DNA of 64,000 nucleotides from assembly GCA_018825365.1 (NCBI GenBank), contig JAHJEV010000003.1, forward strand, positions 238,619-302,618. Reading direction: 5' to 3'. The notes below the pieces were generated by a model that searched no databases, was not told the DNA's origin, and worked only from the letters and a program-made list of their open reading frames with translations. Source of the stretch: Patescibacteria group bacterium (GTDB taxonomy: Bacteria > Patescibacteriota > WWE3 > UBA101185 > UBA10185). Shown one piece after another: positions 14,596 through 50,469 of this stretch. Position 1 is the stretch's first letter. Each line of letters begins with the position of its first letter. The position numbers and the translations under genes were made by a program.

Positions 14596-14788
14596 ATTAA
14601 CACGTGCAAATTTTTTTGTTAACCAAACAAATTACCTTATTTTCCAGCATCGTTTTCTCATGCCAATCTTATAGTTTATAATTAGTAAACGCGGGTTACA
14701 CCATGGCCAAACATTAAGATTGCACCAAATGAACTTGATTGCTTCCTTGCTCATTTCAACGTAAAATACTAAACATGGAGGAACAAAT

Positions 14789-31530: not shown

Positions 31531-31818
31531 CTAATATTCCCGCCTAAGATAGAAAAACACTGTTACACATAGAAACAAATAAAAAAGTGCTGATGAGTTT
31601 AAGTAAATCTTCTCTATTCCAATAAGGGAGGCCAGTAGCGTTAAGCTTAAAAAAGCTGCTGAAAGTATAAGACTGATCCCCGGGGCAACTTTAAAGGACT
31701 TTACTGCAATAAACCAGGAAACCAGGATCAGAATGTAAGTCACTATATATAAATCTGGAAAAATATAAGAAAGTAACAAAGAGAGAATAAATACTGCAAT
31801 AAGAATTTTTCTTGTCAT
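31531..31818 (-). CDS. Small membrane protein (3 TM)
   Basis: A 95-aa protein with three hydrophobic helices. It overlaps the giant upstream gene by 4 nt (ATGA). Confidence 0.4.
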   Translation of the reverse strand: MTRKILIAVFILSLLLSYIFPDLYIVTYILILVSWFIAVKSFKVAPGISLILSAAFLSLTLLASLIGIEKIYLNSSALFYLFLCVTVFFYLRREY

Positions 31819-34800: not shown

Positions 34801-35411
34801 TATAGGTGCTTGTATATAGCCAGTAAGAACATGGTTGATATAGAAAAAATTATGAGTTGCTTAAGCTGGGGAAGGTCTATAAAGAAAAAGAAGTTTACGC
34901 AAAGAGCAAAGAAAACAGCGTAGATTAGCTTTTTACTTTTTAAATACTTTATGAGAAGGAAGGAGCATATAGGAAATCCGTATAGCGGTAGATATGCGTC
35001 AACAACTAGATAGTAGATCGGGTTTAGGACATAAAAAGTGGCTGCGGCTAAAGCTCCCTTTCCCACATTGGCAACCGCATTAGTAAATAATTCTTTGAAT
35101 AGCAAATAGCTGAATACAAAACCAAGAATGATTAAAGTCAGGATGAGTATTTTATGGGCAATAAAACTGGGGACTCCGATAGACCCTAATATAAAATAAA
35201 ACAGGTACCAAAAAAAATGCGAAGAATTCTGAGACTCGCTTCCGGCATCCCACATAAAAGATTTATTCACGTTGTTTAAAGGGTTAAGAGGAAACATCAC
35301 ATCCCCACCAATGTAGTAATTCTTATCCATCATTGAACAGGCAAAAACTACCAAAGCCACGACAAAGGCTAATTCAATTGCATGGGTTTTTAGATAATTA
35401 ATTATTTTCAT
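31815..35411 (-). CDS. Giant membrane glycosyltransferase-like protein (AftD-like architecture)
   Basis: A 1198-aa protein. The first ~430 aa are polytopic (more than 10 TM). A ~700-aa extracytoplasmic Asn/Ser/Tyr-rich domain follows. A single C-terminal TM anchor (ILYFGIILSVIFTFVLTVFVVVG) is followed by RLRRGLK. Confidence 0.55.
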   Translation of the reverse strand: MKIINYLKTHAIELAFVVALVVFACSMMDKNYYIGGDVMFPLNPLNNVNKSFMWDAGSESQNSSHFFWYLFYFILGSIGVPSFIAHKILILTLIILGFVFSYLLFKELFTNAVANVGKGALAAATFYVLNPIYYLVVDAYLPLYGFPICSFLLIKYLKSKKLIYAVFFALCVNFFFFIDLPQLKQLIIFSISTMFLLAIYKHLYPTKIRNLILDLSKAFIITVGLNLWVIIPFTYSIFWGAVGGFSSNLSSYGGSADLHTASIFYIIRFFNSAIINIYPGIHDYLTSWYFVIWTFFLQALLLSGFYFFNRDNKKRKVFLLLLSAMLVLVFIAKGPNPPFGDLYRLIIVNIPQARMFRTTAYVAIGAAMFYSLALALIATKISEYKKGNSLLNILIVIHLVIFFPIYFGHKFFNYSSSNFERKGYKLPNEYWSMGKSLDSIKTDSKVMFLPLSNGYISKKWGYSGADLLTWISKKELVARQDEYGLSIEDKSGIQNGAGLYNSFIFNNTSHILLQKDSMSVPTFDTTNSFTQLVDNRYFTLYKVPLEKYLPKLYVPNKVLYVQSSLADIHNVVDFENYDMRSQVYYLDPNERIKHEIPSNVQNTASDFFVIPQQQISQLSASTMFWNKGWAWPEANTSPVSIKYLAVKLIELKDIYIKSEVLDKVDVYVWLSAKRSAELLKYDLDPSHKDSIINSYVEELGAIKKMLSSIPETEYTPAFWGIVRKTFVYIGKSKDAVLSSSVSPQQRAKVLQSYDKLKDWITVVGNPDCAEYCYKFTMPKSGEYDVYLDTTGILNSVNTESLDIVMAAHDTTLTKLISSENKKDDWVNLGRVKLNTDQEYKYGFSLPTFKNLVDSKKWESVSSNNLNGLDLRSQSIVSTLFTPEKKGASYDRPITVNPLKEWESSKEYKIKFNYSVTNGNLGVAVIEEVPDYAKASNTGSFSTDLYPFSYRNIYSKEFNGKSDKEDVNIEGDATCSYIEEGSCYRTFEQVVKASKDTKNAFIAFYSNAYKDNASVSKIRNISVTQYIRPKIILREKVPLVVTPEEDIPSIDYIRVNQTKYVVKVVGAQKPYDLVFGENFNSNWKIYFVPNVGYTGLNSRQASYFGGKVNEGTHSDLFLYKNMFDTWNLSSIADKSHFMVNGYANVWKIDPKDTNNLNNYYLIIEYTPQRILYFGIILSVIFTFVLTVFVVVGRLRRGLK

Positions 35412-35461
35412 ATGTCCCGATAATAGTTTTTTAACCTGTCTTGAAATTCACTTGCCATATT

Positions 35462-36592
35462 TTAATATCCAAAAGCTGAAAGTTCTATTGACGCGATAGT
35501 GTCCCATGAATATTTGTCTAACAGCACCATTCCTGCCCTATTTATAAAATCTCCACTTTTTAACAAACTCAATACTTTGGCTGCAGTTGCCATAGTATCA
35601 CCTTTCTTTACAAAATAAACCTCATCTTTAACATACAGCGGTTTATACGCATCCAAATCGTATGCAATACACTTAAGCCCACTGCAGACTGCCTCTAAAA
35701 GAGAGACCCCAAAGCTCTCATTAGGGCTTAAAAACAGGTATATTTTACTGCTTCCAATAATATCAAATTTCTCTCTTCCTGCTTTGAATCCAAGCATTAT
35801 TACATTTTTTTGCAAACCAAGTTCGTTTACTTTTTTCTGAAAAGAACTTTCGGAGGAATCGTCGCCCCTTCCCATCAAAGCTAGTAGAAAATCGGGGTAC
35901 TCTTTTTTTACAATAAGCAGTACTTTAAGCAAGTCATAAACCCCCTTGGTTTCATTAATTCTACCAACAAACAGGGCGTCATATTTATACACACCCCGGG
36001 GTTTTGTCTCTTTAATCAGCTCTACTTCCACAGCACAACCAGTTATATGAATAACACCTTTCTTAAAACCTCTGTCTAACATAAAATTGTTTAGGTCTTG
36101 GGTGATTACAAAAATAGCATCAGCCTTTTTTAATAAAAGTAAGCTCATTTCAAAAAAAATATAGGCCAGAAGCTTAATATATTTATTACCAGGCTCTTTA
36201 TATGACACTGTGTTATCAAAATTCACGCCCCATATAAACTTTTCCCCGAATATTTTAAGAAGATATGGAATAAGAAGAAGATCTAAAACCGCTGACAAAG
36301 AATATATAACATCAAAACTTGATTGCCTAATTAGCTTTATATATTTTAGAGCAAACAAATTGCGCTTCATGAATTCGAATATTAGCACTATCCGATTAGT
36401 CGGGTTTACAGCGTTATCGATAGTGTAGTAGGTAATATTTCCTAAATTCTTTTCGTATGCCTGTTTGGCGTCCTTGGTGCACAGCATGTGTATATCGCAA
36501 CCGTTTTTCTGCCAATAACGAATCTTTGAAATTACCGGTACCCGATTATTTCCTACTATAAAACTTAAATCATTTATCAGTATTTTTTTCAT
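35462..36592 (-). CDS. Glycosyltransferase family 4
   Basis: It has the NESFGVSLLEAVCSGLKCIAYD motif. Confidence 0.7.
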   Translation of the reverse strand: MKKILINDLSFIVGNNRVPVISKIRYWQKNGCDIHMLCTKDAKQAYEKNLGNITYYTIDNAVNPTNRIVLIFEFMKRNLFALKYIKLIRQSSFDVIYSLSAVLDLLLIPYLLKIFGEKFIWGVNFDNTVSYKEPGNKYIKLLAYIFFEMSLLLLKKADAIFVITQDLNNFMLDRGFKKGVIHITGCAVEVELIKETKPRGVYKYDALFVGRINETKGVYDLLKVLLIVKKEYPDFLLALMGRGDDSSESSFQKKVNELGLQKNVIMLGFKAGREKFDIIGSSKIYLFLSPNESFGVSLLEAVCSGLKCIAYDLDAYKPLYVKDEVYFVKKGDTMATAAKVLSLLKSGDFINRAGMVLLDKYSWDTIASIELSAFGY

Positions 36593-37755
36593 AATAAATT
36601 TTTAAAGATTGTATCAAACTCTGCGGCTGAAATCTCCCACGAGTACTTCTTTGAGTTCGTTAAACCTTTTTGAATTAGATCGTTACGTAACACATCGTTT
36701 GTAAGCATTTTATTCATGCACTCAGCGATCTGATCGGCTTCTTGAGCATTAGCCAAAAGGGCCGCGTCACCGCATATTTCTATAAGACTGGAGTTATCTG
36801 AGGTAATAACAGGGCAGCTATTTTGCATCGCCTCAAGTATAGGGAGCCCAAACCCCTCATAATAAGGACAGTAAACAAGACATACCGCTTTAGCGTATAA
36901 AACCTTAAGTTCCAAGGCGCTTATATAACGGTCGGTTAACACTACCTGATTGGAGTTTAAACCGAATGAATTCACAGAACGATTGATAATACTTTCCATT
37001 TCTCTGTTGTTAACTACAACCACCAGTTTTAGATCTCCGTTTATTTTCGCAACCTTTGAAAATGCCTCAATGGTTTTTTCAACATTTTTTCTTTTGGAAG
37101 TTCCCATGGTCAGAAAATATTTAGTGTTTTCGGTCAGACATAACCCTTTTAATATCTCTCTTCCTCTCTTGTCTGGGATTACGCCTGATTTTAAATCCCG
37201 ATCTATTCCTAAGTGAACGACCTTGACCATAGATTCATCAATTTTAAACAATTTTAATAAATCGTTTTTGGTGCAATTTGAAATAGTAACGATGCTATCT
37301 GCGCGTTTAAGGCTGGTCTTTAGATATATATCGTAATAGGTTTTGAGTGTAAGGGTTGTGGTCTTTGGAACAATAAATGTACACAAATCTAAAACTCCAA
37401 CAATGTGAGGAACTTTTCTATTTTTAAAAAATGGAAGTATGTCAACAGGGCTGAAATATAAATCGTACTTTTTTATATATTTATTAATAAAGAAAATATC
37501 GAATAAAACTCCGAAGATGTTGTTATTAAACCCCCAAGCACTCACCAAATGAACATTTTTATAAGACAAAAGGTCGTTTATATAGGTATTAGAGTTATCG
37601 TAATTAACTACAATTATGTAGAAATCAAAATCCCGGGATTGGCTTACCAGTGCACGAAGTAAGTTGTAAACATAGCTTTGAACCCCTGTGTAAGGTTGTT
37701 GCAGCAGGCGTAGATTTATAAGAATCTTCTTTTTCATTTTTGTGAAACCATCCAA
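36589..37755 (-). CDS. Glycosyltransferase family 4
   Basis: It has the YEGFGLPILEAMQNSCPVITSD motif. Confidence 0.8.
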   Translation of the reverse strand: MDGFTKMKKKILINLRLLQQPYTGVQSYVYNLLRALVSQSRDFDFYIIVVNYDNSNTYINDLLSYKNVHLVSAWGFNNNIFGVLFDIFFINKYIKKYDLYFSPVDILPFFKNRKVPHIVGVLDLCTFIVPKTTTLTLKTYYDIYLKTSLKRADSIVTISNCTKNDLLKLFKIDESMVKVVHLGIDRDLKSGVIPDKRGREILKGLCLTENTKYFLTMGTSKRKNVEKTIEAFSKVAKINGDLKLVVVVNNREMESIINRSVNSFGLNSNQVVLTDRYISALELKVLYAKAVCLVYCPYYEGFGLPILEAMQNSCPVITSDNSSLIEICGDAALLANAQEADQIAECMNKMLTNDVLRNDLIQKGLTNSKKYSWEISAAEFDTIFKNLL

Positions 37756-38336
37756 AGTTGTCCGCCCAGACCCAGGTTGTTCACAAAAAGCTGTACAACT
37801 TTTGGAAGAGGGTGAAAGGGAGCAGTGGCTTTGACAACTTTAAATCCGGCAACCTCCAAGATAAACTCCAGTGACTTTGAAGTAAATAAGTATTTGTGCG
37901 TTTTATCCCCATACCCGTGCCATGATTTTCCAGATAAAAATCTGCCCAAAGAGTTTAAATTAGGGGTAGTTAGTAATAACTTACCGTTAGGTTTTAAAAT
38001 ACGTCGGCATTCCCGTAAAAACCCCACTGGGCTTTCCAAATGTTCTATCACATCAAATGCTGAAATAAAACTAAACGTATCGTTTGCAAAAATTCCCAGT
38101 CCCTTATCACAGTCATGCTTGGTAAGTTGGGCTTTAGTTACTTTTTTTGCTTCATCAAGATATTCCTCAGATATGTCAATTCCCCAAGTCTTTAAACCAA
38201 AATCGTCACAGCATTTTAAGAACGAGCCTGTAGCGCAGCCTATATCTAACACCGAGGAACCCTTTGCAATCCCTTCTTTTATAATCGCTTCGGGAAAATA
38301 TATTTTATTTATTAATGTTTCAGACTTTATTATCAT
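37734..38336 (-). CDS. Class I SAM-dependent methyltransferase
   Basis: It has motif I VLDIGCATGSF and a 200-aa size. Confidence 0.75.
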   Translation of the reverse strand: MIIKSETLINKIYFPEAIIKEGIAKGSSVLDIGCATGSFLKCCDDFGLKTWGIDISEEYLDEAKKVTKAQLTKHDCDKGLGIFANDTFSFISAFDVIEHLESPVGFLRECRRILKPNGKLLLTTPNLNSLGRFLSGKSWHGYGDKTHKYLFTSKSLEFILEVAGFKVVKATAPFHPLPKVVQLFVNNLGLGGQLWMVSQK

Positions 38337-38337
38337 C

Positions 38338-39063
38338 TTATTTCTTCTTGGCCTGTAAATAAAACCTTGTCGGGATGGTCTGATTTGACACTAAACCCTC
38401 AAATATTTTCTTGTACATCCACACCGAGGTTTTATATTGGCGGTGAAATATGTGTTTATAGATATACAAAATTAGCATATCTATATCCCAGTAAATATTT
38501 CCTATCAAGTCAAGCTTTGTTAATTTAAAACCACCTTCCTCAAGCATACTCAGCATCTGCTTTTTTGAGTAATGGCGATGGCCAAGAAACCAGGCAGGGT
38601 CTATAAAATTAAAAATGTGGCTGTACATAGTACTTAAGACTAAACTACCGTCAGGTTTTAAAAGTTCACCAAGCGTTTTAAGCACTGCAGTCTCTGTGTC
38701 CTGTGGTACGTGCTCAATAACATCAAGAATAAATACAGTATCAAAGAAGTTTTTATATTTTTCCAAAAATACCTTCGGAGGGTTTATGAGATCCAACTCC
38801 TGAAAAGTATACTCAGGGAAGTTCCTCCTGGCGGTGGCTAACGCGTCCTTATTAATATCACTTCCAACTAATTCACATTTAATACCCTCTTTTTTTATCT
38901 CCCCTTCCAAAGTGCCCGTCCAGCACCCTGCATCAAGCACCTTTTTCCCCTCTATGTCCTTCTTGAATGTTTTCACAACATGTTCATGTTGATAGTTAGT
39001 CCTAATACAGGCATCGTTTAGGTTTTGAAATTCCATTTGTCCGTTGTAAAAGAAAGATCTCAT
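38338..39063 (-). CDS. Class I SAM-dependent methyltransferase
   Basis: It has motif I VLDAGCWTGTL and a 241-aa size. Confidence 0.75.
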   Translation of the reverse strand: MRSFFYNGQMEFQNLNDACIRTNYQHEHVVKTFKKDIEGKKVLDAGCWTGTLEGEIKKEGIKCELVGSDINKDALATARRNFPEYTFQELDLINPPKVFLEKYKNFFDTVFILDVIEHVPQDTETAVLKTLGELLKPDGSLVLSTMYSHIFNFIDPAWFLGHRHYSKKQMLSMLEEGGFKLTKLDLIGNIYWDIDMLILYIYKHIFHRQYKTSVWMYKKIFEGLVSNQTIPTRFYLQAKKK

Positions 39064-39064
39064 T

Positions 39065-40246
39065 TTATAAACTCCTTTCGGTAAATAGTGTTTTATACAA
39101 ACTGTAGTAGCTTTCTGCCGTAGCTTGCGGCGTTCTGGATTGCGCTTTTATACTAACATTTTTCTCAATCTCTGCCACTAACTGCGGGTTATCTACAATA
39201 TACTCAAACGCCTTGTCCCACTTGTCGTTTTCAACCAATATACCGGTTTTGTTGTCATCAATATCCTCCAAAAAATGCCCGATGTTTGAAGTAAGCACAC
39301 ACTTATGGTAGCTATTTGAATGGAAAAGCGGACCGCTGGATCCCATGGATAAAATTGCAGGGATTACCACCGCAGAAGCGTGAGTATACAAATCATCCTG
39401 CATCTCTTGCTTGATAAAGCCTTTTATTTCCACTTTATTTTCAAGCCTGTACTTTTTTACCATTTCTTTAATTTCTTCAAACGCCTGTTCCTGGCCTTCA
39501 ATAACACCGCCAGCCAGGATAAATTTAAAATCCGACATGGGGTGCTTGTCACTAAACTTCTTGAAACCCTCAAGCGCAAAACCCAAACCTTTTCTTCTTA
39601 CCATATAACCAAAATAGAAAAAGTAATGGTCATTAGTTGCGTTTGACATGTCACGCTTCGGGATGGCGGTTGGAATGACCTGAATCTTTTTGGCAGGGGC
39701 ACCGTAGTCCTGGGTTAAAATTTGTTTTGTAAGGTTTGTATGAACAATATTAAAGTTTGAAAAGTTGGTTACTGTAAAATAGACATAACTAAAAAAAGCT
39801 TTTACCAAAAAGGGGCTTATTTTATCCGGATCGTACCCAAAGGTTTCGATAAATTTTGTGTTGACCTGCTTTTTATACACCGTTGCATGTACTGTTGTTA
39901 CAACTTTAAAGCCCATGATTCTTGCCGTCAGTATTAGAAAGGGAAACATTACTGCCGTAATTTGACCGCCATACATATTTAACTCGTGTTGAAAATGCAC
40001 AATGTTTGGTTTGTCTATGCGTAACTGTTTGAGAATTTCAAAAAAAAACCTCCAGCTCTTAGACCAAACAGGCTTAATAGTTCCACAACCGGCAATGTCC
40101 AGATTTTCCTGTCTTTTGTCTGTATAAACTACTAATTCGATGTTGGGATTTAAGGCTAACCCTGACGTTATATACTGCGAATAATGCCCATTGGGAAGCA
40201 TTCCCGATACGAAGACAACTTTGAGTTTTTTGCTAGTTATAGCCAC
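39065..40246 (-). CDS. Glycosyltransferase (GT4-like, divergent)
   Basis: It has a GT-B-like two-domain layout with a degenerate EX7E region. Confidence 0.5.
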   Translation of the reverse strand: MAITSKKLKVVFVSGMLPNGHYSQYITSGLALNPNIELVVYTDKRQENLDIAGCGTIKPVWSKSWRFFFEILKQLRIDKPNIVHFQHELNMYGGQITAVMFPFLILTARIMGFKVVTTVHATVYKKQVNTKFIETFGYDPDKISPFLVKAFFSYVYFTVTNFSNFNIVHTNLTKQILTQDYGAPAKKIQVIPTAIPKRDMSNATNDHYFFYFGYMVRRKGLGFALEGFKKFSDKHPMSDFKFILAGGVIEGQEQAFEEIKEMVKKYRLENKVEIKGFIKQEMQDDLYTHASAVVIPAILSMGSSGPLFHSNSYHKCVLTSNIGHFLEDIDDNKTGILVENDKWDKAFEYIVDNPQLVAEIEKNVSIKAQSRTPQATAESYYSLYKTLFTERSL

Positions 40247-40257
40247 TTTTGCAACAG

Positions 40258-42588
40258 TTAAATAATTTCAAATTTCGGTAAAGGGAAAACTAAGTGCCCA
40301 CCTTGTTTTAAATAATCCTTTTCCTTTTCAATTATGGTATCCCTAAAATGCCAAGGCAGGACAAAAAGATAATCCGGCTTTAATTTTCTAGCCTCAGATT
40401 CAGGGATAATTGGTATTCGTGTACCCGGAGTAGTTCTACCGTATTTATATTCGTTGACTTCCGCGATAGCTGGTAGTAGTTCGTAATTAATATCGAAATA
40501 CTGTAATAAAACATTTCCTTTAGTGGAAGCGCCGTAACCAAAAATCTTTTTGTTTTCAGATTTTATTTTTCGCAAAAATCCAATAACATCCATTTTAGTT
40601 TTATCTATATTCTCTTTAAATTCATCAAATACTTTGCTGGTCGAAAACAACTTATTTTCTTTTGCTAACGCTCGTGCGAGTTTAGGTCCGCAGTCTTTAT
40701 AGATAGAATCTTTTTTAGCAATTACCAAGATAAAACTCCCCCCGTTGGTATCGTTAAAATCCAAATCAACAATTTTTAAATGAGCTTTATCACACATCCA
40801 AAGAATTTGTTTTAAACCGTAGTACTCCACATGTTCGTGACAAATGGTATCAAAGGATCTCTGTTTTAACATTTCAGGAAAATAGCTCTGTTCCGTAACC
40901 CAAATTCCTTCTTTATCATCTAATACGCTTGCAATGGATTTTACAAATTTTAGTGGTTCAAGAAGGTCATAAAACATGGCGATTGTTGTAACAATTTTAG
41001 CTTTTTTAGACGTAAACCCTTTTACAACCTGAGCGCTAAAGAATTTTGAAATATATTTAACGTAGCGTGGATAATATTCTTTAAACTTTTTGGCAGTTGG
41101 ATCTATACCCAAAAGTAGATATCCCTTATCCCCATATAAACTTAATAGCGTCCCATCGTTGCTACCAATATCTACAATTAAATCCCCTTTCTCCAGTTTC
41201 ACTAGTTTTGTTAGTTTCTCCACTATCCCACTAAGATGCGTTACCATGGATTTATTAAGTCCTGATCTATAACCATAATTGTCGCCGTAAAGTTCGGTAA
41301 GATCGTAATCATGTGCAAGCTGTGTTAGGCCGCAACCCTCTCCGTTTCGATCGTCGCATTTTACTAACGCAAGTGGGCCTACAGTTACCCGCTCACTTGG
41401 TAATGGGAAAACTCCGGTAAGACTTTGATTTCCTAAACTGATAATTTCATATAGTTTTTTGTTTCCGCAGATCCTGCAACTATCAATCCTTTTGCAAGTT
41501 ACGTCGCTTTCATTTTTACGATTGGCCCCACTTAGTTCTCTTTGGACATCGTTAATATCTTCTTTGATCATTATGTTTACTAATTCAGAAAAACTTGTGC
41601 GTGGTTTCCAGCCAAGTAGCTTTTTTGCTTTAGTGGCATCCCCGAGCAATTGCTCTACTTCCGCAGGTCTAAAAAAAGCCGGATCTACTTCAACAAGTGT
41701 TTTTCCGGTATTAGTTTCGATACCCTTCTCCCCGACACCTTTTCCTACCCACTTAATGTTTATACCTACACGCTTAAAAGACTCTTCACAAAAATCTCGC
41801 ACCGTGTGGTTTTTTCCCATAGCAATCACGAAATCCTGCGGTTCTTTCTGCTGTAGCATTAGCCACATAGCCTCTACGTAATCTTTTGCGTAACCCCAGT
41901 CTCTTTGGGCACCTAAATTACCTAGCACAAGTTTATCCTGTAGCCCATACTTTATTCGGGCAACAGACTTGGTGATTTTCTTTGTTACAAAAAGATCTCC
42001 ACGTCTGGGAGATTCGTGATTAAAAAGAATTCCGTTTACACAAAACAGATTGAAAGATTCTCTGTAGTTTATTGTAATCCAGTATGCATAGAGCTTCGCC
42101 ACTCCATAGGGAGATCTGGGATGAAATGGAGTATTTTCGTTTTGGGGCGTTTCTCTAACCTTTCCAAAAAGTTCAGATGTTGACGCCTGATAGAACTTAC
42201 ATTTGGGAACTATAGTTTTCATTGCCTCCAAAAGGCGTAATGTACCCAAAGCATTGACTTCTCCTGTAAGTTCCGGCTCTTGAAAGGATATATGTACTTG
42301 AGACTGTGCCGCTAGGTTATATATCTCATCAGGTTTTATACTTTCGATTATTCTATGAATATTAGCTGAGTCGGTTAGATCGCCATATAGCAGGTGTACC
42401 CGTTTAATAATAATTTCAGGAAGGTTGATAAGATGGTTTATTCTCTCTGTATTAGAAACGGAGCTGGATCTTTGTATCCCATAAACCTCATACCCCTTAT
42501 GGAGCAAAAACTCCGCTAAATATGAGCCGTCTTGTCCGGTTATTCCTGTGATAAGAGCTTTTTTCATAACTAGGGCATTATATAACAT
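40258..42588 (-). CDS. gmd: Bifunctional GDP-mannose 4,6-dehydratase / NDP-hexose C-methyltransferase (TylC3-like) fusion
   Basis: The N-terminal ~350 aa is canonical Gmd ([19 protein letters not shown]..., YNLAAQSHV-like, [12 protein letters not shown]). The C-terminal ~410 aa has the Zn-ribbon C-x4-C-x2-C...C-x7-C, a class I MT fold ([12 protein letters not shown]) and a C-terminal domain as in the TylC3/NovU/CloU sugar C3-methyltransferases. Confidence 0.75.
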
Positions 42589-42615
42589 AAAATATACAAA
42601 ACCATCACTTACTTT

Positions 42616-44220
42616 TTAACTCTTCAAACGTTTGATAAATCCTCTACCTGCATCGACCCAAAACTTAGGAGACAACATATTAACTTTAGTTTGATTCTTA
42701 TCAAAATCAAACAAATGGCCTATTAGTTTCTTTGCGGAGTAAGCTAAAAATTTAACATCCTGCCAACTTCTAATACCTGTAATTTTCCTGTACAAATACT
42801 GAGGGGAGAGAAACGATGAATACAATGCTTGGGTGAGTTCCATCAGTCTTTCCTGCGAAAAGGGAACGCTCATAACTGGTTTTCTCATATCAAACTGCTC
42901 ATAATCTTTTGGGTCTACAATAAACCATTTATTCTCCAAGCACTGCTTATAAAGCTCAGATCCGGGATAGGGAATGACAATTGTAGCCTGCATGGTATCT
43001 ACATGTCCGTCTTTAAACAGCTTTTTTGCCAAAACGATCGTGTTTTGAGCCATTTCCTCTGTCTCCCATGGGTACCCAAGCATAACAGTAATGTGAGGCT
43101 CAAGACCGGCCTTTTTTGCTTCCGCAAGATGCGGCTCTATTTCCTCCACTTTCAATCCTTTTTGGAGCCTGTCCAAAGTTTCCTGATTTGCCGACTCAAG
43201 ACCATAAAGGATAAATCTGAAATTAGCTTTCTTCATCAGCTCGCAGTATTCCTTAGTTAAGGCGTTTATCCTCATATTACAGCTGTATACTACTTTCTTG
43301 TTGTAACCGGAATTAATCATTAATTCACAAAATTTCTTTAACGGGGCGCCAATATAAAATGTTCCAGCATCGTCAAATATTTCTTTCACGCCATATGTAT
43401 CAACAACATGTTTTACTTCCTCAAATAGTCTTTCAGGACTAAATCTTCTGTATGTTCCAAAGGGATACAAAGTGAAATTCCATATACAAAAAGTACACTT
43501 ACCCCACCAACAATCTCTTCCAGAATACATATAAGTCCCGGGTTTATACTTATAATTCCCGTTTTCATACGCATAAAGCTCCCACTTCGTCAGGTCCCTG
43601 TCTATAAAAGGTAAAACGTCCAACTCGTGTTTCATATCAACAGGTCCGGAGTTCCAGTATTTCCCATGATGGGCTGCAGTTTCACCAAGCTTGACACTTT
43701 TGTTCTCTTCCCTTCCCCAAATTCCTCCTGTTAATATCTCTCCACTTTCAATAGATCTGACCAGATCCAAAAGAAGAAAATCATAGTCCCCCCCGGTTAT
43801 TATGTAATCGGCAGGACATCTTTCTAAAGTCTCAACGGGAAGGTAAGTTACGTGATCCCCAACCATAACAATTATTAAATTCGGAAATTTTTGCTTGATC
43901 TGCTTTACCAGTCCCCAACAAATCTTTATAACGGGGGTCTTCGATTCAATCATTACTAAATCCGGTTTTTCATCTTCAAGCTGCCCCGTCCACTCATCAA
44001 ATGTTTTTTTCTCCGCAATTCCATCCATCCAGATAACCTCGTAACCTTTTGACTTAAGCAAGGAAGCAGCGTAAGCCGGGACCATCGGATAAACATATGT
44101 AGGAGCATTAAAGTATTGGAACTGTCTGTTTTGGGATAAAAGCGGAACTCCCTTATCACTTTGGATTGGCGGATAACCTATTGCAACTTTAAATGTTTTT
44201 TTTTGCTTATCTTTTGGCAT
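42616..44220 (-). CDS. B12-binding-domain radical SAM protein (class B), putative methyltransferase
   Basis: It has an N-terminal cobalamin-binding-like Rossmann region and a radical SAM core with an unusual CX4CX2C motif (DCWWGKCTFC). Size is 534 aa. Confidence 0.65.
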   Translation of the reverse strand: MPKDKQKKTFKVAIGYPPIQSDKGVPLLSQNRQFQYFNAPTYVYPMVPAYAASLLKSKGYEVIWMDGIAEKKTFDEWTGQLEDEKPDLVMIESKTPVIKICWGLVKQIKQKFPNLIIVMVGDHVTYLPVETLERCPADYIITGGDYDFLLLDLVRSIESGEILTGGIWGREENKSVKLGETAAHHGKYWNSGPVDMKHELDVLPFIDRDLTKWELYAYENGNYKYKPGTYMYSGRDCWWGKCTFCIWNFTLYPFGTYRRFSPERLFEEVKHVVDTYGVKEIFDDAGTFYIGAPLKKFCELMINSGYNKKVVYSCNMRINALTKEYCELMKKANFRFILYGLESANQETLDRLQKGLKVEEIEPHLAEAKKAGLEPHITVMLGYPWETEEMAQNTIVLAKKLFKDGHVDTMQATIVIPYPGSELYKQCLENKWFIVDPKDYEQFDMRKPVMSVPFSQERLMELTQALYSSFLSPQYLYRKITGIRSWQDVKFLAYSAKKLIGHLFDFDKNQTKVNMLSPKFWVDAGRGFIKRLKS

Positions 44221-44223
44221 AAC

Positions 44224-45237
44224 TCAACCTTCAACATAATTCCCAGTTTTCTCATCAAATCTTTTTAATTTTAACTTAGGTTTTCTTAATAAACCAATTA
44301 GAAAATTGACTCCATAAACGACATGGGTCATAAACACTGCTACCTCAAACTCAAAGAATGCGACAATATTCTTCTCTTTAAAAGCAACTTTTGCCGACTC
44401 GAAGAACAAAACCGAGAGATAAACAATAATAACCCAATAATAAATGTTCCACAAAGGGGGAATGAGAAAGCAAAGAAACGGTCCTAAAACTATACCAAGA
44501 ACAAAAGCTGATGGAGCAAAATAACTAGGTATTCTTGAGGTTTCAGGAAATATTTTTGCAAACTGTCCTCTGTGTTGTCCATACCTTGAAATTTGTTTCA
44601 GATGGGGAAGTAGTAACCCTCTTCTGTGGTGGTAAACCAAAACTGATGGATCATACGAAAACCTCCTATCATATTTTTTAACTAAATCCAAACAAAGTTT
44701 GGTGTCTTCTCCCGGCCAAAATTCAGTTGTAAATCCTCCAACAGAGTCAAAAGAGTCCTTTCTTACAAAAAGATTTACCGAAGGATAATCATCAACCATT
44801 CTTTTTGGCTTAGGTATATATCTGTATGTTGTGTTGCCACTCACAAATGCGGACTCTATCACTCTACCAAACATCCTCTCGGAGTACCCAGCATCTAAAG
44901 GAGTTTCGGCAGGTCCTCCCAGTGCGTAAATACTGGCATCCGCAAATATAATTGCTGCATTCGTCAGCCAATCTTTTTTAGGATAGGAGTCGTCGTCTAA
45001 AAAGGCTAATATTTCCCCTGTTGCATTTCTTGCTCCCTGATTTCTTTTTCCTCCTGGGCTAAATTGATCGGCAAGCAAAAGTTTGAATCTGGAATCTCCA
45101 AAGTCAAACTCCTCTTTTACGTCCGTAATAATAAACACCTCAAAATTTGAGTAATTTAGGTTTTTTACATGAAAAATTATTTCTTTTACGTAATCGTTTA
45201 TTTTTCTAACGATTATTACTATCGAGAACTTAATCAT
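44224..45237 (-). CDS. GT2 glycosyltransferase with C-terminal TM pair (GtrB/ArnC-like polyprenyl-phosphate glycosyltransferase)
   Basis: A GT-A domain with an LDDDS DxD motif is followed by two C-terminal TM helices. Confidence 0.65.
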   Translation of the reverse strand: MIKFSIVIIVRKINDYVKEIIFHVKNLNYSNFEVFIITDVKEEFDFGDSRFKLLLADQFSPGGKRNQGARNATGEILAFLDDDSYPKKDWLTNAAIIFADASIYALGGPAETPLDAGYSERMFGRVIESAFVSGNTTYRYIPKPKRMVDDYPSVNLFVRKDSFDSVGGFTTEFWPGEDTKLCLDLVKKYDRRFSYDPSVLVYHHRRGLLLPHLKQISRYGQHRGQFAKIFPETSRIPSYFAPSAFVLGIVLGPFLCFLIPPLWNIYYWVIIVYLSVLFFESAKVAFKEKNIVAFFEFEVAVFMTHVVYGVNFLIGLLRKPKLKLKRFDEKTGNYVEG

Positions 45238-46060
45238 TTATTACTTCTCCTGTATTAACCCTCATATCAAGCTCTTTGTCGTATACCCAAAGTCTTTTGC
45301 TTTTATCGCTATAATAATGAAGAATTTTTAATCTATAAAAAACCGCAAGAGTGTCTAAAATCATATTTCTTATATTCTTATCCAAAAATAAAAAGGGTGT
45401 GAAATTAGTGTTAGCGTTATTCCAATCTATTTGTATTGGAGCCTCGTAAATTCTTTCAAATCCCAAATATTTTGAAACTGCCAATATTTCTATATCAAAA
45501 GCAAACGCTTTGACCAGAAGTCTTGGCAAAACCTTTTCTAACACTTCTCTTTTAAAAACCTTAAGACCGGACTGAGTATCTGTAATCTTCAAACCAAAGA
45601 GAATTCTGACAAATCTACTGTAAACCCAACTATAAAGTCTTCTTATAAAAGGGTATGCGACTTTTGATGCTGGGTGTCTTTTGCTTCCAACAATTATATC
45701 GGCGTTGTACCACTGCATGTGCTCCAAAATCATAGATACCCCATTCGGATTTATATCCATTCCGGAATCAATGAAAACAATGTAATCACCAAGGGACCTT
45801 GCCATTCCGTATCTTATTGCATAGCCTTTTCCCCTGTTTGTCTTATACCCGACAACCTTAACATCGAAAGTTTCAAGCGTTTTTGCCATTTCGTATGTTT
45901 TATCCATAAACCCATCAACAACAACAATAACTTCATAGGCCCACCTAGTTTGGGACATTACATCGACAATTCTTTGAACATCTTTAACAATGGTTTTTTC
46001 TTGTTTATAAGCAGGGATTATTACTGAAACTAATTTTTTATCTGCAGTATTTTCGGACAT
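45230..46060 (-). CDS. GT2 glycosyltransferase, DPM1-like (polyprenol-phosphate hexose synthase)
   Basis: It has VSVIIPAYKQEKTI, VVVDGFMDKT and FIDSGMD (DxD) motifs and is soluble at 276 aa. Confidence 0.8.
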   Translation of the reverse strand: MSENTADKKLVSVIIPAYKQEKTIVKDVQRIVDVMSQTRWAYEVIVVVDGFMDKTYEMAKTLETFDVKVVGYKTNRGKGYAIRYGMARSLGDYIVFIDSGMDINPNGVSMILEHMQWYNADIIVGSKRHPASKVAYPFIRRLYSWVYSRFVRILFGLKITDTQSGLKVFKREVLEKVLPRLLVKAFAFDIEILAVSKYLGFERIYEAPIQIDWNNANTNFTPFLFLDKNIRNMILDTLAVFYRLKILHYYSDKSKRLWVYDKELDMRVNTGEVIND

Positions 46061-47313
46061 TTAATGACTTGGGCATATAGATAAATTATTAAAAGACTCA
46101 GCGTAATTATACATATAATAATATTTACCCAAATAACCTGAAATAAAGATACGTGGTAAATATTTAGCAGAATATACTGCAGAAGCACTCCAGGAAGAAG
46201 CAATAAAGAAACCTTCTTCTTATCGATGGCAAGGAAAAACATCACAAAAAAGCTAATTAAAATATAAAGGCCAATGAATATTGAAAACAGAGGAAGGAAT
46301 TGGATAGAATTCTCAAATGTTTTCCCGAAGAAAAGGTGTGTGAGAAGTTGTGGAAAAATATGATAGCAAATGACTCCTGCGATCACAATAAAAATAAGCA
46401 AGGATGTTAATTTTTTAAATTCTTTAAGATAACCCTCGCCTTTAGCGTACAAACCTGTAATTTTTGGAAACATAATCACACTCACAGCTCCAGACCCAAA
46501 CAAAAATATTTTTCCTAAGGTTGCAGTTCCAGCATAGTATCCAGCGTCCAACCCCGAAAAAAATCTTTTAACCATTATTAGATCCATATTGTTTAAAGCT
46601 ATAAGGAAAAAATTCACAAACAAAACAGGCAGACTAAACGAAATAAGTTTTTTATAGTATTCATTAAGATTGAAACTTTCACTCCCAGTAACTTTGAAAC
46701 TTCCTCTTATTAATAAGAGTGATAGAACGAAAGTCAGAAGAGCTGCACCAACCATTCCTCCGAATACACCGACAAGTCCAAAACCGGCGAAAACTAAAAG
46801 TGTGGGAATAACAAACCTATTAAAAGAGCCCAGTACTTGGTATGCAGAGTACTTTTTAAATTTCTGTAAACCCTGTAAGTAAACTGGTGGAAGTGTTGAA
46901 AGAAAACCCAATCCCAATAAAACCGCGAACAACGTAATCGAAGGGACACTTTCAACCTTAAAACCGCTCGAAATTCTAAACCTTAAAAAGAAAAACACAG
47001 ATGTAAAAACGAATCCTAACAATAAAGAAGCCACGGAAAGCTTGAGGAAAAGTTTTTTCATTTTTCCTTTCTCTCCTCTCACATAAAGCTCTGACACAAT
47101 TTTTATAAGGGATATACCAAAAACAGATATAGGAACACTAACAAGGGAAGAAAGCGACAACAGCACGTTAAAAGACCCATAATCGGACACGGAAAGTTTT
47201 CTACCAAGCACAAACTGCAAAAGATAGCTAAAAAAAGCTCCAATTAGTGTCCCTGCTCCAACAATAATCGTTTGTTGTATATCTGAATTTTTTGTTGTTT
47301 CTTTATTACTCAA
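46030..47313 (-). CDS. Wzx-like flippase (MOP superfamily)
   Basis: A 427-aa protein with about 12 TM helices and a PST-family N-terminus. Confidence 0.6.
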   Translation of the reverse strand: MSNKETTKNSDIQQTIIVGAGTLIGAFFSYLLQFVLGRKLSVSDYGSFNVLLSLSSLVSVPISVFGISLIKIVSELYVRGEKGKMKKLFLKLSVASLLLGFVFTSVFFFLRFRISSGFKVESVPSITLFAVLLGLGFLSTLPPVYLQGLQKFKKYSAYQVLGSFNRFVIPTLLVFAGFGLVGVFGGMVGAALLTFVLSLLLIRGSFKVTGSESFNLNEYYKKLISFSLPVLFVNFFLIALNNMDLIMVKRFFSGLDAGYYAGTATLGKIFLFGSGAVSVIMFPKITGLYAKGEGYLKEFKKLTSLLIFIVIAGVICYHIFPQLLTHLFFGKTFENSIQFLPLFSIFIGLYILISFFVMFFLAIDKKKVSLLLLPGVLLQYILLNIYHVSLFQVIWVNIIICIITLSLLIIYLYAQVIKCPKILQIKN

Positions 47314-48943
47314 TTAAATTTTTCGCCTCTCTAATGTAAACCTTGTACACAGGAACGCCCCTTAATTTGACATCACCTATATATTTAATCACGTACCTGT
47401 CTTCTAATTTTGAATCATCATCCCAAACAGGATATACAAAATACCTAGTTTTATTGGCAAATGGAGTTAGGTTTCTTATAACTGCCCAAGCTCCAAACTT
47501 TCTGAAAAATGGCCAAACTTGCGAGTAATTTTTCTCTCTAAAACCAACGGTTACAACTTGTAATACTTCCTTCCCATATCCCTTATAAACAAGTTCCTCA
47601 AAAGAAGAGTCGGTTGAGATTATATAGCCATCTCTTTTTTGAACATTCTTAAAATAATCAATTAAAGGGTCAACGCCAATTAACCACTTGGGTTCGAGAA
47701 CATTTATTCCTGTTTTCAAACCCCCAAAAGCTGGGTTGTAATAAGATAAGTAGTCTGGATGAAGATAAATAGCTGTTAATAATACCGGGATTAATGCAAT
47801 AAGAATTTTTATCTTTCCAAATTTTAATTTTTCAAATAACCAAACAAAAAATATTGACGAGGTCAGCATCATAACAAGCTGTTCAGGCAAAATATATCGA
47901 TCAAGCTTTTTTGTAGGCAACGTTAGCTGGATAAAATAAAAAAAGATAAACACCAAAAGGTAATCCAAAAAGTTTTTGTAATAAGTTGGTAATTTTTTTC
48001 TAATAAACAATACACCTATAAAACCTACCAAAAGATAAATTGATGATCTAAATCCAAGAACAACAAAATAAAAGCTCGGTCCTGGATTAGTGACTAGTTT
48101 TCCAAAGTACAGTTGCTCATGATCCCCTTCTATTCCAATATCAACAATTCCTGAGTAAAGTGTTTTAAAAACTTCTCCTGGTTTAACCCAAAGGGCAGGC
48201 CACAAAAGGAAAAAAGTTGCGACAAGTGCAAACAACCATAAAAGGAATGGTCTTACAGATAATTTAACTGCTTTAAAAAAGTGTTTCTCTTCACGGAAAA
48301 AGAATAAAAACGATGCTAAACCAATAAAAGGAAGGAGAAACAAGGCAGAGGTCTTTGTAAGAATGGCAAGTCCAGCAAAGATTCCTGAAATCACTGCTCT
48401 TCTTATCAATTTTTTATCTGCAAGGTAGTAGTAAAACCAAAGAATGCTAACTAACATAAATGTTGATTCCAAGCCTTCCAAGTGGATTACCCGAGTCAGT
48501 GCTAAATAAAATGGCTCAAAATTTAACAAAATAAAGGTAACAATTGCATATTTCAACCCAAACAACTTTCTTAAAACATAAAATGCAAACCCGAATGCTA
48601 CTGCCTGGCCTGAAACAATAAAAATCTTTTGCCAAAGATCAAGTTGAAACACCGTGACCATACTGTTGAGTGCAGGATCCGAGTGATTAACTATATCAGA
48701 ATACAAATTATAAAACTTAATGCCAAAGCCTCCGAGCCACATCAGAGTTACACCCGGATGGTAAGTTTGCAGAGTCTGGTCAAATTTCAGTGTAAAAAAG
48801 CCGTTTCCGAAATCGTAAGTTCTTGCTTTCCACCTCCACACATCGGTGTTAAAACCGTCATTCCCTAAAGCAGGCAACCGGGTGAGTATAAAAAACAAAA
48901 CTACCAATATTTCGTATTTAATATTTTTAAAATTCTTAATCAT
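47306..48943 (-). CDS. GT-C family membrane glycosyltransferase (ArnT/PMT_2-like)
   Basis: A polytopic protein with the first-loop motif ...TYHPGVTLMW.... It is a paralog of 50450..52054. Confidence 0.6.
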   Translation of the reverse strand: MIKNFKNIKYEILVVLFFILTRLPALGNDGFNTDVWRWKARTYDFGNGFFTLKFDQTLQTYHPGVTLMWLGGFGIKFYNLYSDIVNHSDPALNSMVTVFQLDLWQKIFIVSGQAVAFGFAFYVLRKLFGLKYAIVTFILLNFEPFYLALTRVIHLEGLESTFMLVSILWFYYYLADKKLIRRAVISGIFAGLAILTKTSALFLLPFIGLASFLFFFREEKHFFKAVKLSVRPFLLWLFALVATFFLLWPALWVKPGEVFKTLYSGIVDIGIEGDHEQLYFGKLVTNPGPSFYFVVLGFRSSIYLLVGFIGVLFIRKKLPTYYKNFLDYLLVFIFFYFIQLTLPTKKLDRYILPEQLVMMLTSSIFFVWLFEKLKFGKIKILIALIPVLLTAIYLHPDYLSYYNPAFGGLKTGINVLEPKWLIGVDPLIDYFKNVQKRDGYIISTDSSFEELVYKGYGKEVLQVVTVGFREKNYSQVWPFFRKFGAWAVIRNLTPFANKTRYFVYPVWDDDSKLEDRYVIKYIGDVKLRGVPVYKVYIREAKNLIE

Positions 48944-50469
48944 TTTGTATTTAAACTATACACAGAAATTGAGGGACCCAGTCTTAAATTATCGCTAAAG
49001 TATACAATTTTTTTCAATTTTGATTTATTAGAATCCAAAAAATCTTTATCATTTTTCTCATCGGCTAAAATCAGCAGAGAGTTTGGATAATCCTTACTTA
49101 AAGTTATTCCCTTAATTGAATTTATTCCAAGACTTCCAAACACATCCTGCAAAGTTGAGTCGTTGTAAACGATTGTGGACCCAGGTTTGTTGTTTTTTAT
49201 AAGCCATGCTTGTAGTTGGTTTCTGGTATCGCCTCTGATAAACGAATAGGATTGGAGAAGTGAAAACATAAGAGGTGGTAAAAACACTGCGATTAGAAAC
49301 AACATTTTCAAGAACTTACCCGATTTTTCAAATAGAAACGAAAAGTAATCTACAAAATAACCAAAGGTTAAGGCCAAAAATGGATATGCTACGAAATAAT
49401 AGTGCGAACGATTCTTTTCAAATCCTGAAACGTACCATATTAGAAAAAGCGACATTAAATACAAAAACACTAAGTAAAACTCCCGTTGCTCCATTTTTTT
49501 CCTAATAAGTCTATATAAAAGCCATGAGAACAAGACAATAAAGCCAATCATTACTGTGTATCCGGTATCAACTAACAATTTATTAGCTATATCCGAGAAA
49601 AACTTAGTAAAATGTTCAGACAGCTTTACTGAACCAACATTTGTAAACTGCCAAAAAGCTCCTGCTGGACTGTCCGTTTTAGAAAAAGTCTTAAAATCAA
49701 GCACGGAATAAGGCGTACCTACAACAAATCCTACCAGTGCCGCTAAACCGGCTAAAACCAAGGCTTCCAAACCTTTTAAAGTTATCCTTTTAACTGCCCT
49801 ATCCTGTTTTTTCTTCTCAAAAACCCTTAAAAAATGGGCAACGGGAACCATAAGCGCAGAAAGTCCGCCGTTGTACTTTGTTGAAGCCGAAAATCCGACA
49901 AAAAGGCCCGACAAAATATAGTTCTTAATACCGGTTTCTTTAATAATACGGGTCGCAAAGTAAAGTCCCCAAGCAAGGAAAAAAGTCATCGGCACATCAG
50001 GCAAAGAATAGTGCGAGTGCCTTACATGGTAGGGCATAAGTGCAAAAACAAGTGCCGAAAAAAACCCCGCACTTTTCCCAAACAGTTCCTTACCTGATAA
50101 GTAAATGGGTATGACGGTTAAAGCTCCAAGTATGGCGCTGAAACATCTGGTTAAATAGTAAAAAACCAATTTATCATCCCACATTAAAGGAAATATCTTT
50201 ATAAAAAGGTCGCTTAATCCTAAACCCGGAACAAAACTTCTAAACTTCGCAAATACCATATATAAAAAATAATTTAAATAAATATAAAAGTGAGGCCAAT
50301 CAAAATGCTTCGGATTAATTTCAAACCTAATTCCCAGCGCAGATCTTACAATAGTCGGCTCGTCTGGATGAAATATGAAAGGAAATCCATGCTCAATCCC
50401 TGCCAGCCTAACAGCTAAAGCCAACACTATTATTAACAGTAAAATCCAGTTATTTCTTTTTTGTAACAT
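48940..50469 (-). CDS. GT-C family membrane glycosyltransferase (ArnT/PMT_2-like)
   Basis: A polytopic protein with an N-terminal loop containing ...GFPFIFHPDEPTIVRSA.... It resembles lipid-carrier-dependent GT39/GT83 enzymes. Confidence 0.6.
   Translation of the reverse strand: MLQKRNNWILLLIIVLALAVRLAGIEHGFPFIFHPDEPTIVRSALGIRFEINPKHFDWPHFYIYLNYFLYMVFAKFRSFVPGLGLSDLFIKIFPLMWDDKLVFYYLTRCFSAILGALTVIPIYLSGKELFGKSAGFFSALVFALMPYHVRHSHYSLPDVPMTFFLAWGLYFATRIIKETGIKNYILSGLFVGFSASTKYNGGLSALMVPVAHFLRVFEKKKQDRAVKRITLKGLEALVLAGLAALVGFVVGTPYSVLDFKTFSKTDSPAGAFWQFTNVGSVKLSEHFTKFFSDIANKLLVDTGYTVMIGFIVLFSWLLYRLIRKKMEQREFYLVFLYLMSLFLIWYVSGFEKNRSHYYFVAYPFLALTFGYFVDYFSFLFEKSGKFLKMLFLIAVFLPPLMFSLLQSYSFIRGDTRNQLQAWLIKNNKPGSTIVYNDSTLQDVFGSLGINSIKGITLSKDYPNSLLILADEKNDKDFLDSNKSKLKKIVYFSDNLRLGPSISVYSLNTK

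Follow-up and report, generated by a model that had tools for sequence, protein, structure and literature searches.

Fusion of a GDP-mannose 4,6-dehydratase with a TylC3/EryBIII-type sugar C-methyltransferase in a Patescibacteria envelope-glycan region, next to a B12-type radical SAM cassette

We analysed a 64,000-nucleotide stretch of DNA from a Patescibacteria group bacterium (contig JAHJEV010000003.1, hereafter the window). A single gene in it encodes a protein in which a GDP-mannose 4,6-dehydratase (Gmd) is joined to a sugar C-methyltransferase (C-MT) of the TylC3/EryBIII type, and the gene immediately upstream encodes a radical S-adenosylmethionine (SAM) protein with a B12-binding domain. 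We consider it probable that the fusion catalyses two successive steps in a GDP-linked pathway to a branched sugar, while the radical SAM gene belongs to a separate conserved cassette. A GDP-linked C-methyl-6-deoxyhexose as the predicted product is well supported, because fusions of the two enzymes occur in both orders and operons of the type gmd–cmt–reductase are found. C3 is the likely site of methylation.

The window has a G+C content of ~36%. Almost the whole stretch is a single envelope-glycan region, and the minus strand holds most genes. Both open reading frames (ORFs) lie where the initial annotation had placed them and have the sizes it described: 776 amino acids (aa) for the fusion and 534 aa for the radical SAM protein. 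They share a strand and are separated by 27 nt. The first ATG of the fusion gives 776 aa; the public record of an identical protein (P0001, 769 aa, 100% identity) begins at Met8 (42567) and was deposited as 'GDP-mannose 4,6-dehydratase' of Patescibacteria group bacterium. The fusion gene and its parts are as follows.

40258..42588, minus strand: bifunctional gene for the Gmd–TylC3/EryBIII-type sugar C-methyltransferase fusion, 776 aa (domain, family and structure matches)
41542..42564, minus strand: Gmd domain, aa 9-349 (TIGR01472, 2z1m alignment and motifs)
41497..41541, minus strand: inter-domain linker, aa 350-364 (AlphaFold2 (AF2) predicted local distance difference test score (pLDDT) <50 at residues 354-363)
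41287..41478, minus strand: Zn-ribbon of the C-MT, aa 371-434 (Pfam PF08421)
40765..41220, minus strand: class I SAM-binding fold of the C-MT, aa 457-608 (Pfam PF13489)
40276..40749, minus strand: C-terminal domain of the C-MT, aa 614-771, with GASTKGN at 686-692 (Pfam PF08484, E 1.8e-47)

By sequence, the N-terminal half is a canonical GDP-mannose 4,6-dehydratase, as had been annotated, and is predicted to convert GDP-mannose. The Pfam domain GDP_Man_Dehyd covers aa 12-340 (E 2e-147), and the full-length NCBIfam equivalog TIGR01472 (gmd) scored 531 bits against a cutoff of 415 over residues 9-346. This half aligns over its whole length with solved GMDs such as those of Aquifex (2z1m, 470 bits) and E. 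coli (1db3). It carries the NADP-binding motif GITGQDG (15-21), STSE (136-139, with E139), Y161 and K165, and E139, Y161 and K165 were invariant in the 47 fusions compared. The roles of the catalytic Thr/Ser-Glu-Tyr-Lys residues in Gmd are described in a supplement legend of PMC3539893.

The C-terminal half has the Zn-ribbon, the class I fold and the C-terminal domain of the TylC3 type, and is not a generic methyltransferase. Pfam matches were Methyltransf_13 (PF08421) at aa 371-434 (40.2 bits against a threshold of 31.3, E 4e-10), Methyltransf_23 (PF13489) at aa 457-608 (36.5 bits) and Methyltransf_14 (PF08484) at aa 614-771 (161.5 bits). Judged by its sequence, it is a genuine nucleoside diphosphate (NDP)-hexose C-methyltransferase of the TylC3/EryBIII subfamily, beyond the mere Pfam architecture, because over ~410 aa, the full length, it is 44.6% identical to TylCIII, 43.8% to EryBIII, 48.0% to AviG1 and 44.7% to CBU_0691 of Coxiella (sequences taken from the supplementary alignment of PMC3539893). 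CBU_0691 in turn shares 62-72% identity with standalone members of the C-MT clade of the window. All four cysteines of the Zn-ribbon (C371, C374, C411 and C419) are invariant in alignments A1 and A3; the second pair is spaced CX7C here, in contrast to CX4C in TylCIII, EryBIII and AviG1 and CX2C in 4rv9. The SAM fold shows DIGSNDG (473-479), D496 and the HEH (584-586) acid/base pair, and the DIGSNDG and CHEH motifs are conserved in TylC3, EryBIII and AviG1. In 4rv9 and KijD1 the residues aligned with CHEH (583-586) are YHEH and YDEH, respectively; in our fusion and C-MT alignments H586 never varies, and residue 585 is either E or D. In TcaB9 the catalytic Glu-His pair is presumably E224/H225.

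The solved sugar C3-methyltransferases 4rv9, TcaB9 and KijD1 (PDB 4rv9, 3ndi and 5t64) belong to the same fold family and align end to end with the C-terminal half (E 1e-46 to 3e-34). The best PDB match was 4rv9, which its depositors named 'D-mycarose 3-C-methyltransferase'. However, these enzymes act on dTDP-linked sugars, fall into another subfamily and are only ~30% identical to the half studied here. TylC3, EryBIII and AviG1 are standalone enzymes for dTDP-2,6-dideoxy-4-ketohexoses in antibiotic (macrolide and orthosomycin) clusters, whereas the enzyme of the window is fused to Gmd and lies in an envelope-glycan operon. The fusion to Gmd thus implies GDP-4-keto-6-deoxymannose as a putative substrate.

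That an assembly error or frameshift merged two separate genes can virtually be dismissed. In the closest unfused relatives (L010 and L123) gmd and cmt are indeed adjacent and co-oriented. However, the ORF is uninterrupted, an identical protein is held at NCBI, proteins of the same architecture that are 83-86% identical occur in independent assemblies from three sources (JGI, Logan and ENA), and dozens of more distant fusions exist, with the length of the linker region conserved across the 47 compared. The artefact explanation was rejected on this recurrence in independent assemblies. In the AF2 model (mean pLDDT 90, predicted template modelling score (pTM) 0.57) residues 354-363 are the sole disordered part. 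The model thus depicts two well-folded halves on a flexible tether of ~15 residues, with no predicted fixed interface between them.

The Gmd/C-MT fusion is neither rare nor unique, in contrast to the initial annotation, which knew of no such fusion. Domain mapping of the 120 best clusters identified 81 fusions, 49 in the order Gmd–C-MT and 32 in the order C-MT–Gmd, all of them named just 'GDP-mannose 4,6-dehydratase'. Fusions of the C-MT with a reductase also occur (P0054, P0055, P0076 and L011, 1423-3624). A rough neighbour-joining tree with Fitch parsimony gave approximately 19 changes of architecture; therefore, fusions arose repeatedly. The named sources of the best clusters were Patescibacteria, WWE3, Nanoarchaeota and 'archaeon', and one fusion locus (L002) sits among genes atypical of Patescibacteria. 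We also observed a Nanoarchaeota protein of 1102 aa (P0089) that combines methyltransferase and Gmd with NUDIX-family Pfam matches (PF00293 and PF14815), and proteins in which Gmd is joined to a second short-chain dehydrogenase/reductase (SDR; P0024, P0036, P0041 and P0079). Our literature search, whose coverage left out most subscription journals, found no published description of a Gmd/C-MT fusion and no biochemistry of a GDP-sugar-specific C-methyltransferase. What is new is the fused form and the Rosetta-stone evidence that it brings; the kinds of enzyme and the chemistry were already known or proposed.

To place the fusion among unfused relatives, GTDB species representatives were scanned with an alignment of the methyltransferase halves. 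The C-MT clade was found in at least 595 species-representative genomes (confirmed loci), mostly as a separate gene, in many bacterial phyla and some archaea. The best 80 loci, 48-56% identical to the query, cover Bacteroidota, Verrucomicrobiota, Planctomycetota, Chloroflexota, Proteobacteria, Myxococcota, Lachnospiraceae, Methanoregula and Patescibacteria. The gene stands alone in 79 GTDB loci that have a complete methyltransferase; in L011 it is fused to an SDR. A paralogue of Gmd from the SDR family lies directly downstream of the C-MT gene in 34 of the 79 loci, a true Gmd is present in the locus in 24, and any Gmd-family SDR in 55. Examples from cultured organisms lie on plasmids: an Azospirillum oryzae plasmid has the order ManC, methyltransferase, short 'Gmd' and then glycosyltransferases, and on a Phyllobacterium plasmid the methyltransferase neighbours PMM, a glycosyltransferase and rhamnan synthesis F. 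These methyltransferases are annotated merely as 'class I SAM-dependent methyltransferase'.

The partner SDR scores best against Gmd models and structures, yet below their cutoffs. In 116 of 120 partner SDRs, L, H or M takes the place of the catalytic Glu of Gmd (equivalent to E139), while the Ser/Thr-Tyr-Lys triad is invariant, a signature expected of a 4-ketoreductase and not of a dehydratase. This combination of a lost Glu and a kept triad therefore points to a conserved pathway of Gmd, C-MT and a Gmd-derived reductase. In size, position and the lost catalytic Glu these SDRs resemble Rmd (2pk3), although the family is nearer to Gmd (181 bits against 62 bits for 2pk3). In one related genome (L001) the reductase gene lies between the radical SAM gene and the fusion. 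A 313-aa SDR at 12282-13223 of the window was considered as the partner and rejected; it has no NCBIfam or PDB match and lies inside a CDP-glucose module.

On this basis the pathway would run as follows. The N-terminal domain would oxidise, dehydrate and reduce GDP-D-mannose to GDP-4-keto-6-deoxy-D-mannose. The E585/H586 pair of the C-terminal domain would then deprotonate a carbon adjoining the 4-keto group, most probably C3, and a methyl group would be transferred to it from SAM; with C3, the result would be GDP-3-C-methyl-4-keto-6-deoxyhexose. In the relatives, the Glu-less Gmd-derived SDR, usually encoded by the next gene and sometimes fused to the methyltransferase, would reduce C4, and the product would be a 6-deoxy-3-C-methylhexose of the evalose or virenose type. 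Such sugars occur in bacterial O-antigens: Azorhizobium and B. andropogonis have 3-C-methyl-D-rhamnose (evalose), H. pylori has 3-C-methyl-mannose and Coxiella has virenose (PMC7203242, PMC12961483, PMC3539893). The initial annotation had proposed a GDP-linked 3-C-methyl-6-deoxyhexose. The fusions in both orders and the operons lend strong support to the GDP-linked C-methylation, and C3 is likely only.

Several points weigh against this pathway. The evidence for GDP specificity consists of the fusion and its gene context, and the characterised members of the subfamily, TylC3 and EryBIII, act on dTDP-sugars. Substrate channelling between the domains, which the initial annotation had suggested, finds no support beyond plain proximity, because with a pTM of 0.57 the inter-domain geometry is not confident and no inter-domain interface is defined. 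Moreover, the partner reductase is not in the 64-kb window, where tblastn with the L001 and L002 SDRs matched only the Gmd half of the fusion.

The missing reductase could be accounted for if the methyltransferase domain doubled as the 4-ketoreductase, with SAM or NADPH in the same site, or if the Gmd domain itself were bifunctional. A TylCIII homologue from S. argillaceus shows activity as a 4-ketoreductase, according to a report as cited in PMC3539893. However, most relatives have a dedicated reductase, and that of this organism may sit elsewhere on the ~460-kb contig, outside the window. We take the S. argillaceus homologue to be MtmC, the protein of structure 4rv9, from which the C-terminal half is distant at just ~30% identity. 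Bifunctional GMDs were reportedly described by King et al. (2009). Altogether, built-in reduction appears improbable.

The position of the methyl group was weighed in the same way. C5 is likewise alpha to the 4-keto group, so methylation there is chemically possible and would give a 5-C-methyl-6-deoxyhexose, a gem-dimethyl sugar of the noviose or tiacumicin type. NovU-type C5-methyltransferases share the Pfam architecture of TylC3-type enzymes. Moreover, TiaS2, the C-methyltransferase for the tiacumicin sugar, gives 5-methyl-rhamnose (PMC6963833). However, every characterised subfamily member compared here (TylCIII, EryBIII and AviG1) is a C3-methyltransferase, and the C-terminal half is 44-48% identical to these three but only ~29% to the C-1027 aminosugar-cluster methyltransferase, which we take to be a C5 enzyme. 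Furthermore, the C-methyl 6-deoxyhexoses of the cited O-antigen papers are methylated at C3 (PMC7203242, PMC12961483, PMC3539893). Methylation at C5 is therefore unlikely, though it deserves to be kept in mind, and we continue with C3.

The initial annotation described C-methyltransferases of this family as mostly acting on dTDP-sugars. This holds for the characterised antibiotic enzymes, but a GDP route with Gmd and a TylCIII-like methyltransferase has already been proposed for virenose in Coxiella burnetii (PMC3539893). There, an in silico scheme leads from GDP-mannose through a 4-keto-6-deoxy intermediate and C3-methylation to reduction, the same chemistry that we propose for the window, with CBU_0689 as Gmd, CBU_0691 as the TylCIII-like methyltransferase and CBU_0688 as an Fcl-like protein (PMC3539893). 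A 2026 preprint states that the Coxiella virenose pathway is not yet fully characterised (PMC13252051). The two systems differ in that the Coxiella genes are unfused, and in that the Coxiella reductase is Fcl-like whereas that of the relatives of the window is a Gmd-derived SDR.

Downstream of the fusion, three genes are relevant to the fate of the sugar.

39065..40246, minus strand: glycosyltransferase of family 4 (GT4; synteny with C-MT in L001, L013, L095 and L123)
37734..39063, minus strand: pair of small class I SAM methyltransferases of 241 and 200 aa (Pfam; syntenic in L001 and L013)

Orthologues of the GT4 gene stand directly after the C-MT or reductase gene in L001 (75% identity), L013 (55%), L095 and L123. 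The GT4 is thus co-inherited with the C-MT and is likely the transferase for the C-methyl sugar, which it would probably move onto the envelope glycan. The two small methyltransferases probably modify the same glycan further, presumably by O-methylation. L092, the closest relative, encodes a radical SAM protein with 90% identity, yet it lacks the fusion gene: behind the radical SAM gene come a different GT4 (50%) and then an orthologue of the methyltransferase gene at 38338-39063 (83% at the nucleotide level). Another locus, L093, is collinear with window positions 54247-42698 and diverges immediately past the radical SAM gene. We therefore regard the fusion and the GT4 as a swappable module in a long glycan operon of Patescibacteria, the variable half of which starts with it.

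The radical SAM gene closes the conserved half of this operon; its features and those of its upstream neighbours are listed below.

42616..44220, minus strand: B12-binding-domain radical SAM protein, 534 aa, final gene of a conserved cassette (Pfam, NCBIfam, structure and context)
43486..43512, minus strand: CWWGKCTFC cluster motif, C237/C242/C245, CX4CX2C (translation and alignment)
43792..44100, minus strand: B12-binding-like Rossmann domain, aa 41-143 (Pfam PF02310)
44224..46060, minus strand: two family 2 glycosyltransferases (GT2s), one of 337 aa, membrane-anchored, and one of 276 aa, polyprenyl-phosphate-sugar-synthase-like (travel with the radical SAM gene)
46030..47313, minus strand: Polysacc_synt flippase, member of the conserved cassette (Pfam and locus comparison)

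The protein has a class B-type layout, a B12-type domain followed by a radical SAM core; cobalamin binding and methyl transfer are putative. The B12-binding domain (PF02310, aa 41-143) scored 41.9 bits against a threshold of 32.1, and Radical_SAM (PF04055, aa 234-395) scored 62.3 bits against 29.5. A motif scan of the B12-like domain found GDHVT (121-125) and no DxHxxG. Window positions 43486-43515 on the minus strand translate to DCWWGKCTFC, which has the spacing CX4CX2C, and the form CWW[NGA][RK]C[TIV]FC (once CWYNRCTFC) was present in 120 of the 120 best homologues. C237, C242 and C245 are invariant and, with a one-residue insertion, align with the CX3CX2C found in 9ccb and in distant relatives. 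The unusual spacing noted in the initial annotation is therefore genuine and a family trait. However, it is not unprecedented, since CX4CX2C is known from the crystal structure of OxsB and from GenD1 (PMC9204698, PMC4340712), and RadicalSAM.org has a CX4CX2C megacluster (PMC9477430).

Across the 120 best clusters the family is 63-90% identical (56-90% when sampled loci are added), and its named sources are Patescibacteria, including WWE3 and Saccharimonadales. Wider relatives were sampled as representatives clustered at 50% identity. The first two cysteines are separated by X4 in close relatives, by X7 or X9-X19 in others and by X3 in distant relatives (~30% identity), the latter being at the distance of HpnJ, whose own sequence lay outside the comparison. 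Five full-length homologues among P0241-P0390 (P0260, P0262, P0267, P0272 and P0278) have no Cys triad and may be cluster-less paralogues. Similar to the protein of the window, OxsB and GenD1/GenK combine a B12-binding-like domain with a radical SAM core whose Cys loop is longer by one residue (PMC9204698, PMC4340712), but they are ~15% identical to it, differ in domain extent and belong to unrelated pathways.

The gene content around the radical SAM gene was compared in 50 metagenome loci with at least 3 kb upstream and 52 with at least 3 kb downstream. An orthologue of the 337-aa GT2 (44224-45237) was found upstream in 46 of the 50 loci, of the 276-aa GT2 (45230-46060) in 37, and a small ferredoxin in 29. 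In WWE3 and Saccharimonadales loci the GT2 orthologues are 58-62% identical; the NCBIfam matches of the two GT2s of the window are weak. In contrast, a C-MT gene lies downstream in 2 of the 52 loci, and the radical SAM gene is present in 1 of the 79 C-MT loci. For this reason we assign the radical SAM gene, as the last gene, to a conserved Patescibacteria cassette of flippase, GT2, GT2, often ferredoxin, and radical SAM, outside the C-methyl-sugar module. Our literature search, with the coverage given above, found nothing on this cassette. The ferredoxin, of 86-88 aa, is located between the GT2 pair and the radical SAM gene in many Patescibacteria loci (e.g. L005 4044-5298, L006 1219-2493 and L007 4830-6035), and in these three it is followed by a conserved protein of ~320 aa with faint GH42/TIM-like similarity. 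The ferredoxin and the ~320-aa, 241-aa and 227-aa proteins adjacent to the radical SAM gene in other loci are absent from the window, and the protein matches were only faint GH42/TIM-like ones.

The initial annotation had suggested that a second unusual methylation may act on the same sugar or glycan; the radical SAM protein would then methylate either the GDP-sugar itself or the residue that the fusion makes. The two genes are adjacent on the same strand with a gap of just 27 nt, and the radical SAM gene directly precedes the C-MT module in L001/L095 and L013 as well and lies within ~1.6 kb of it in L123. Moreover, C-methylases are numerous among class B enzymes (PMC9204698). Cooperation between the two is thus possible, and the substrate that we assign to the radical SAM protein is purely inferred. 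However, L092 has the radical SAM gene without the fusion, radical SAM and C-MT genes meet in only 2 of 52 and 1 of 79 loci, and the radical SAM protein is far more conserved than the module and tracks the two GT2 genes. We therefore find a second methylation of the same sugar quite improbable. The protein most likely acts on a lipid-linked product of the cassette GT2s and not on the GDP-sugar.

The chemistry that it performs there could be methylation, as the initial annotation assumed for class B enzymes in general, or something else. A non-methylating reaction on a polyprenyl-phosphate-linked sugar from the two upstream GT2s, such as a ring contraction as in HpnJ, a dehydration as in AprD4 or a rearrangement as in OxsB, is a serious contender, if somewhat short of an even chance. 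The curated families that match best, in full-length alignments, are HpnJ, the radical SAM enzyme of the hopanoid cyclitol ether (TIGR03471, 165.6 bits), and BchE (114 bits), both of which are non-methylases (PMC9204698). The AF2 model (pLDDT 84, pTM 0.85, with a confidence of ~60 in the Cys loop) is structurally closest to the sugar diol-dehydratase AprD4 (template modelling scores 0.68/0.79), and OxsB, which has the same CX4CX2C, also ranks high (PMC9204698). The substrate of HpnJ is a lipid-linked hexosamine made by a GT2 (PMC9204698), and the protein of the window is likewise linked to GT2s: one polyprenyl-phosphate-sugar-synthase-like and one membrane GT2, often with the ferredoxin. AprD4 has the same domain layout as the protein of the window and is not known to use cobalamin. 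Nevertheless, the family scores are far below the curated cutoffs (577.6 bits for HpnJ), the window has no hopanoid genes, and the methylases MgmA, TsrM, CysS and TokK are structural matches as well. HpnJ itself was rejected as an identity on score and gene context, and so was a trio like HpnI/HpnJ/HpnL, since the GT2s do not match HpnI and the protein at 52032-52946 has just a generic flippase-like domain. A bolder and rather doubtful proposal is that the radical SAM protein marks a cassette shared across the Patescibacteria and that its cobalamin-assisted radical rearrangement or C-methylation of a polyprenyl-phosphate sugar would give an envelope sugar without precedent in other bacteria, and that the Gmd–C-MT–GT4 module would add a GDP-derived 3-C-methyl-6-deoxyhexose to the same glycan.

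The remainder of the window contains further glycan genes. A second nucleotide-sugar module at 12282-15940 has a glucose-1-phosphate cytidylyltransferase-like gene, an RmlC-like epimerase gene and a CDP-glucose 4,6-dehydratase gene (421 bits, above the cutoff), and it probably makes a CDP-6-deoxyhexose. Four PMT_2 (ArnT/PMT-like GT-C) paralogues, a DUF2079 membrane protein and an LPG_synthase_TM/flippase-like protein are encoded at 47306-52054, 57250-58869, 54418-56565 and 52032-52946 (minus strand), which suggests extensive extracytoplasmic glycosylation dependent on polyprenyl-phosphate sugars. The fifth PMT_2 domain of the window lies in a 949-aa protein (17239-20088, minus strand) in which a Wzy_C (O-antigen ligase) domain is joined to PMT/PMT_2 (GT-C) domains. 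Amid the glycan genes but on the other strand, 23829-25110 (plus strand) carries an AbiEii-type nucleotidyltransferase toxin gene and an overlapping ORF of no assigned family. Three large ORFs on the minus strand are Pfam-negative: 31815-35411 (1198 aa), 27871-29556 (561 aa) and 25998-27383 (461 aa). For the 1198-aa protein, the Collierbacteria locus L013 encodes a relative at the corresponding position (44% identity over 44% of its length). An Rfam scan found no RNA families in the window, and a scan of 35000-47500 for promoters and terminators gave counts not above those of shuffled sequences, so no operon boundaries were derived.

Branched 6-deoxyhexoses with a C-methyl group, evalose and virenose among them, are considered rare, and GDP-dependent C-methylation has so far been proposed in silico only, for the Coxiella virulence sugar virenose. 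The recurrent fusions of the C-MT, with Gmd in either order or with the next reductase, are the strongest available genomic evidence that a clade of TylC3-type enzymes acts on GDP-4-keto-6-deoxymannose. The pathway appears to be widespread and under-annotated, since nearly all of its members are named only 'class I SAM-dependent methyltransferase' or 'GDP-mannose 4,6-dehydratase'. A single polypeptide with Gmd and C-MT would be a handy reagent for tests of the reaction and for the synthesis of GDP-C-methyl sugars. Finally, the analysis flags a highly conserved B12-type radical SAM cassette of no assigned function in the envelope-glycan loci of Patescibacteria.

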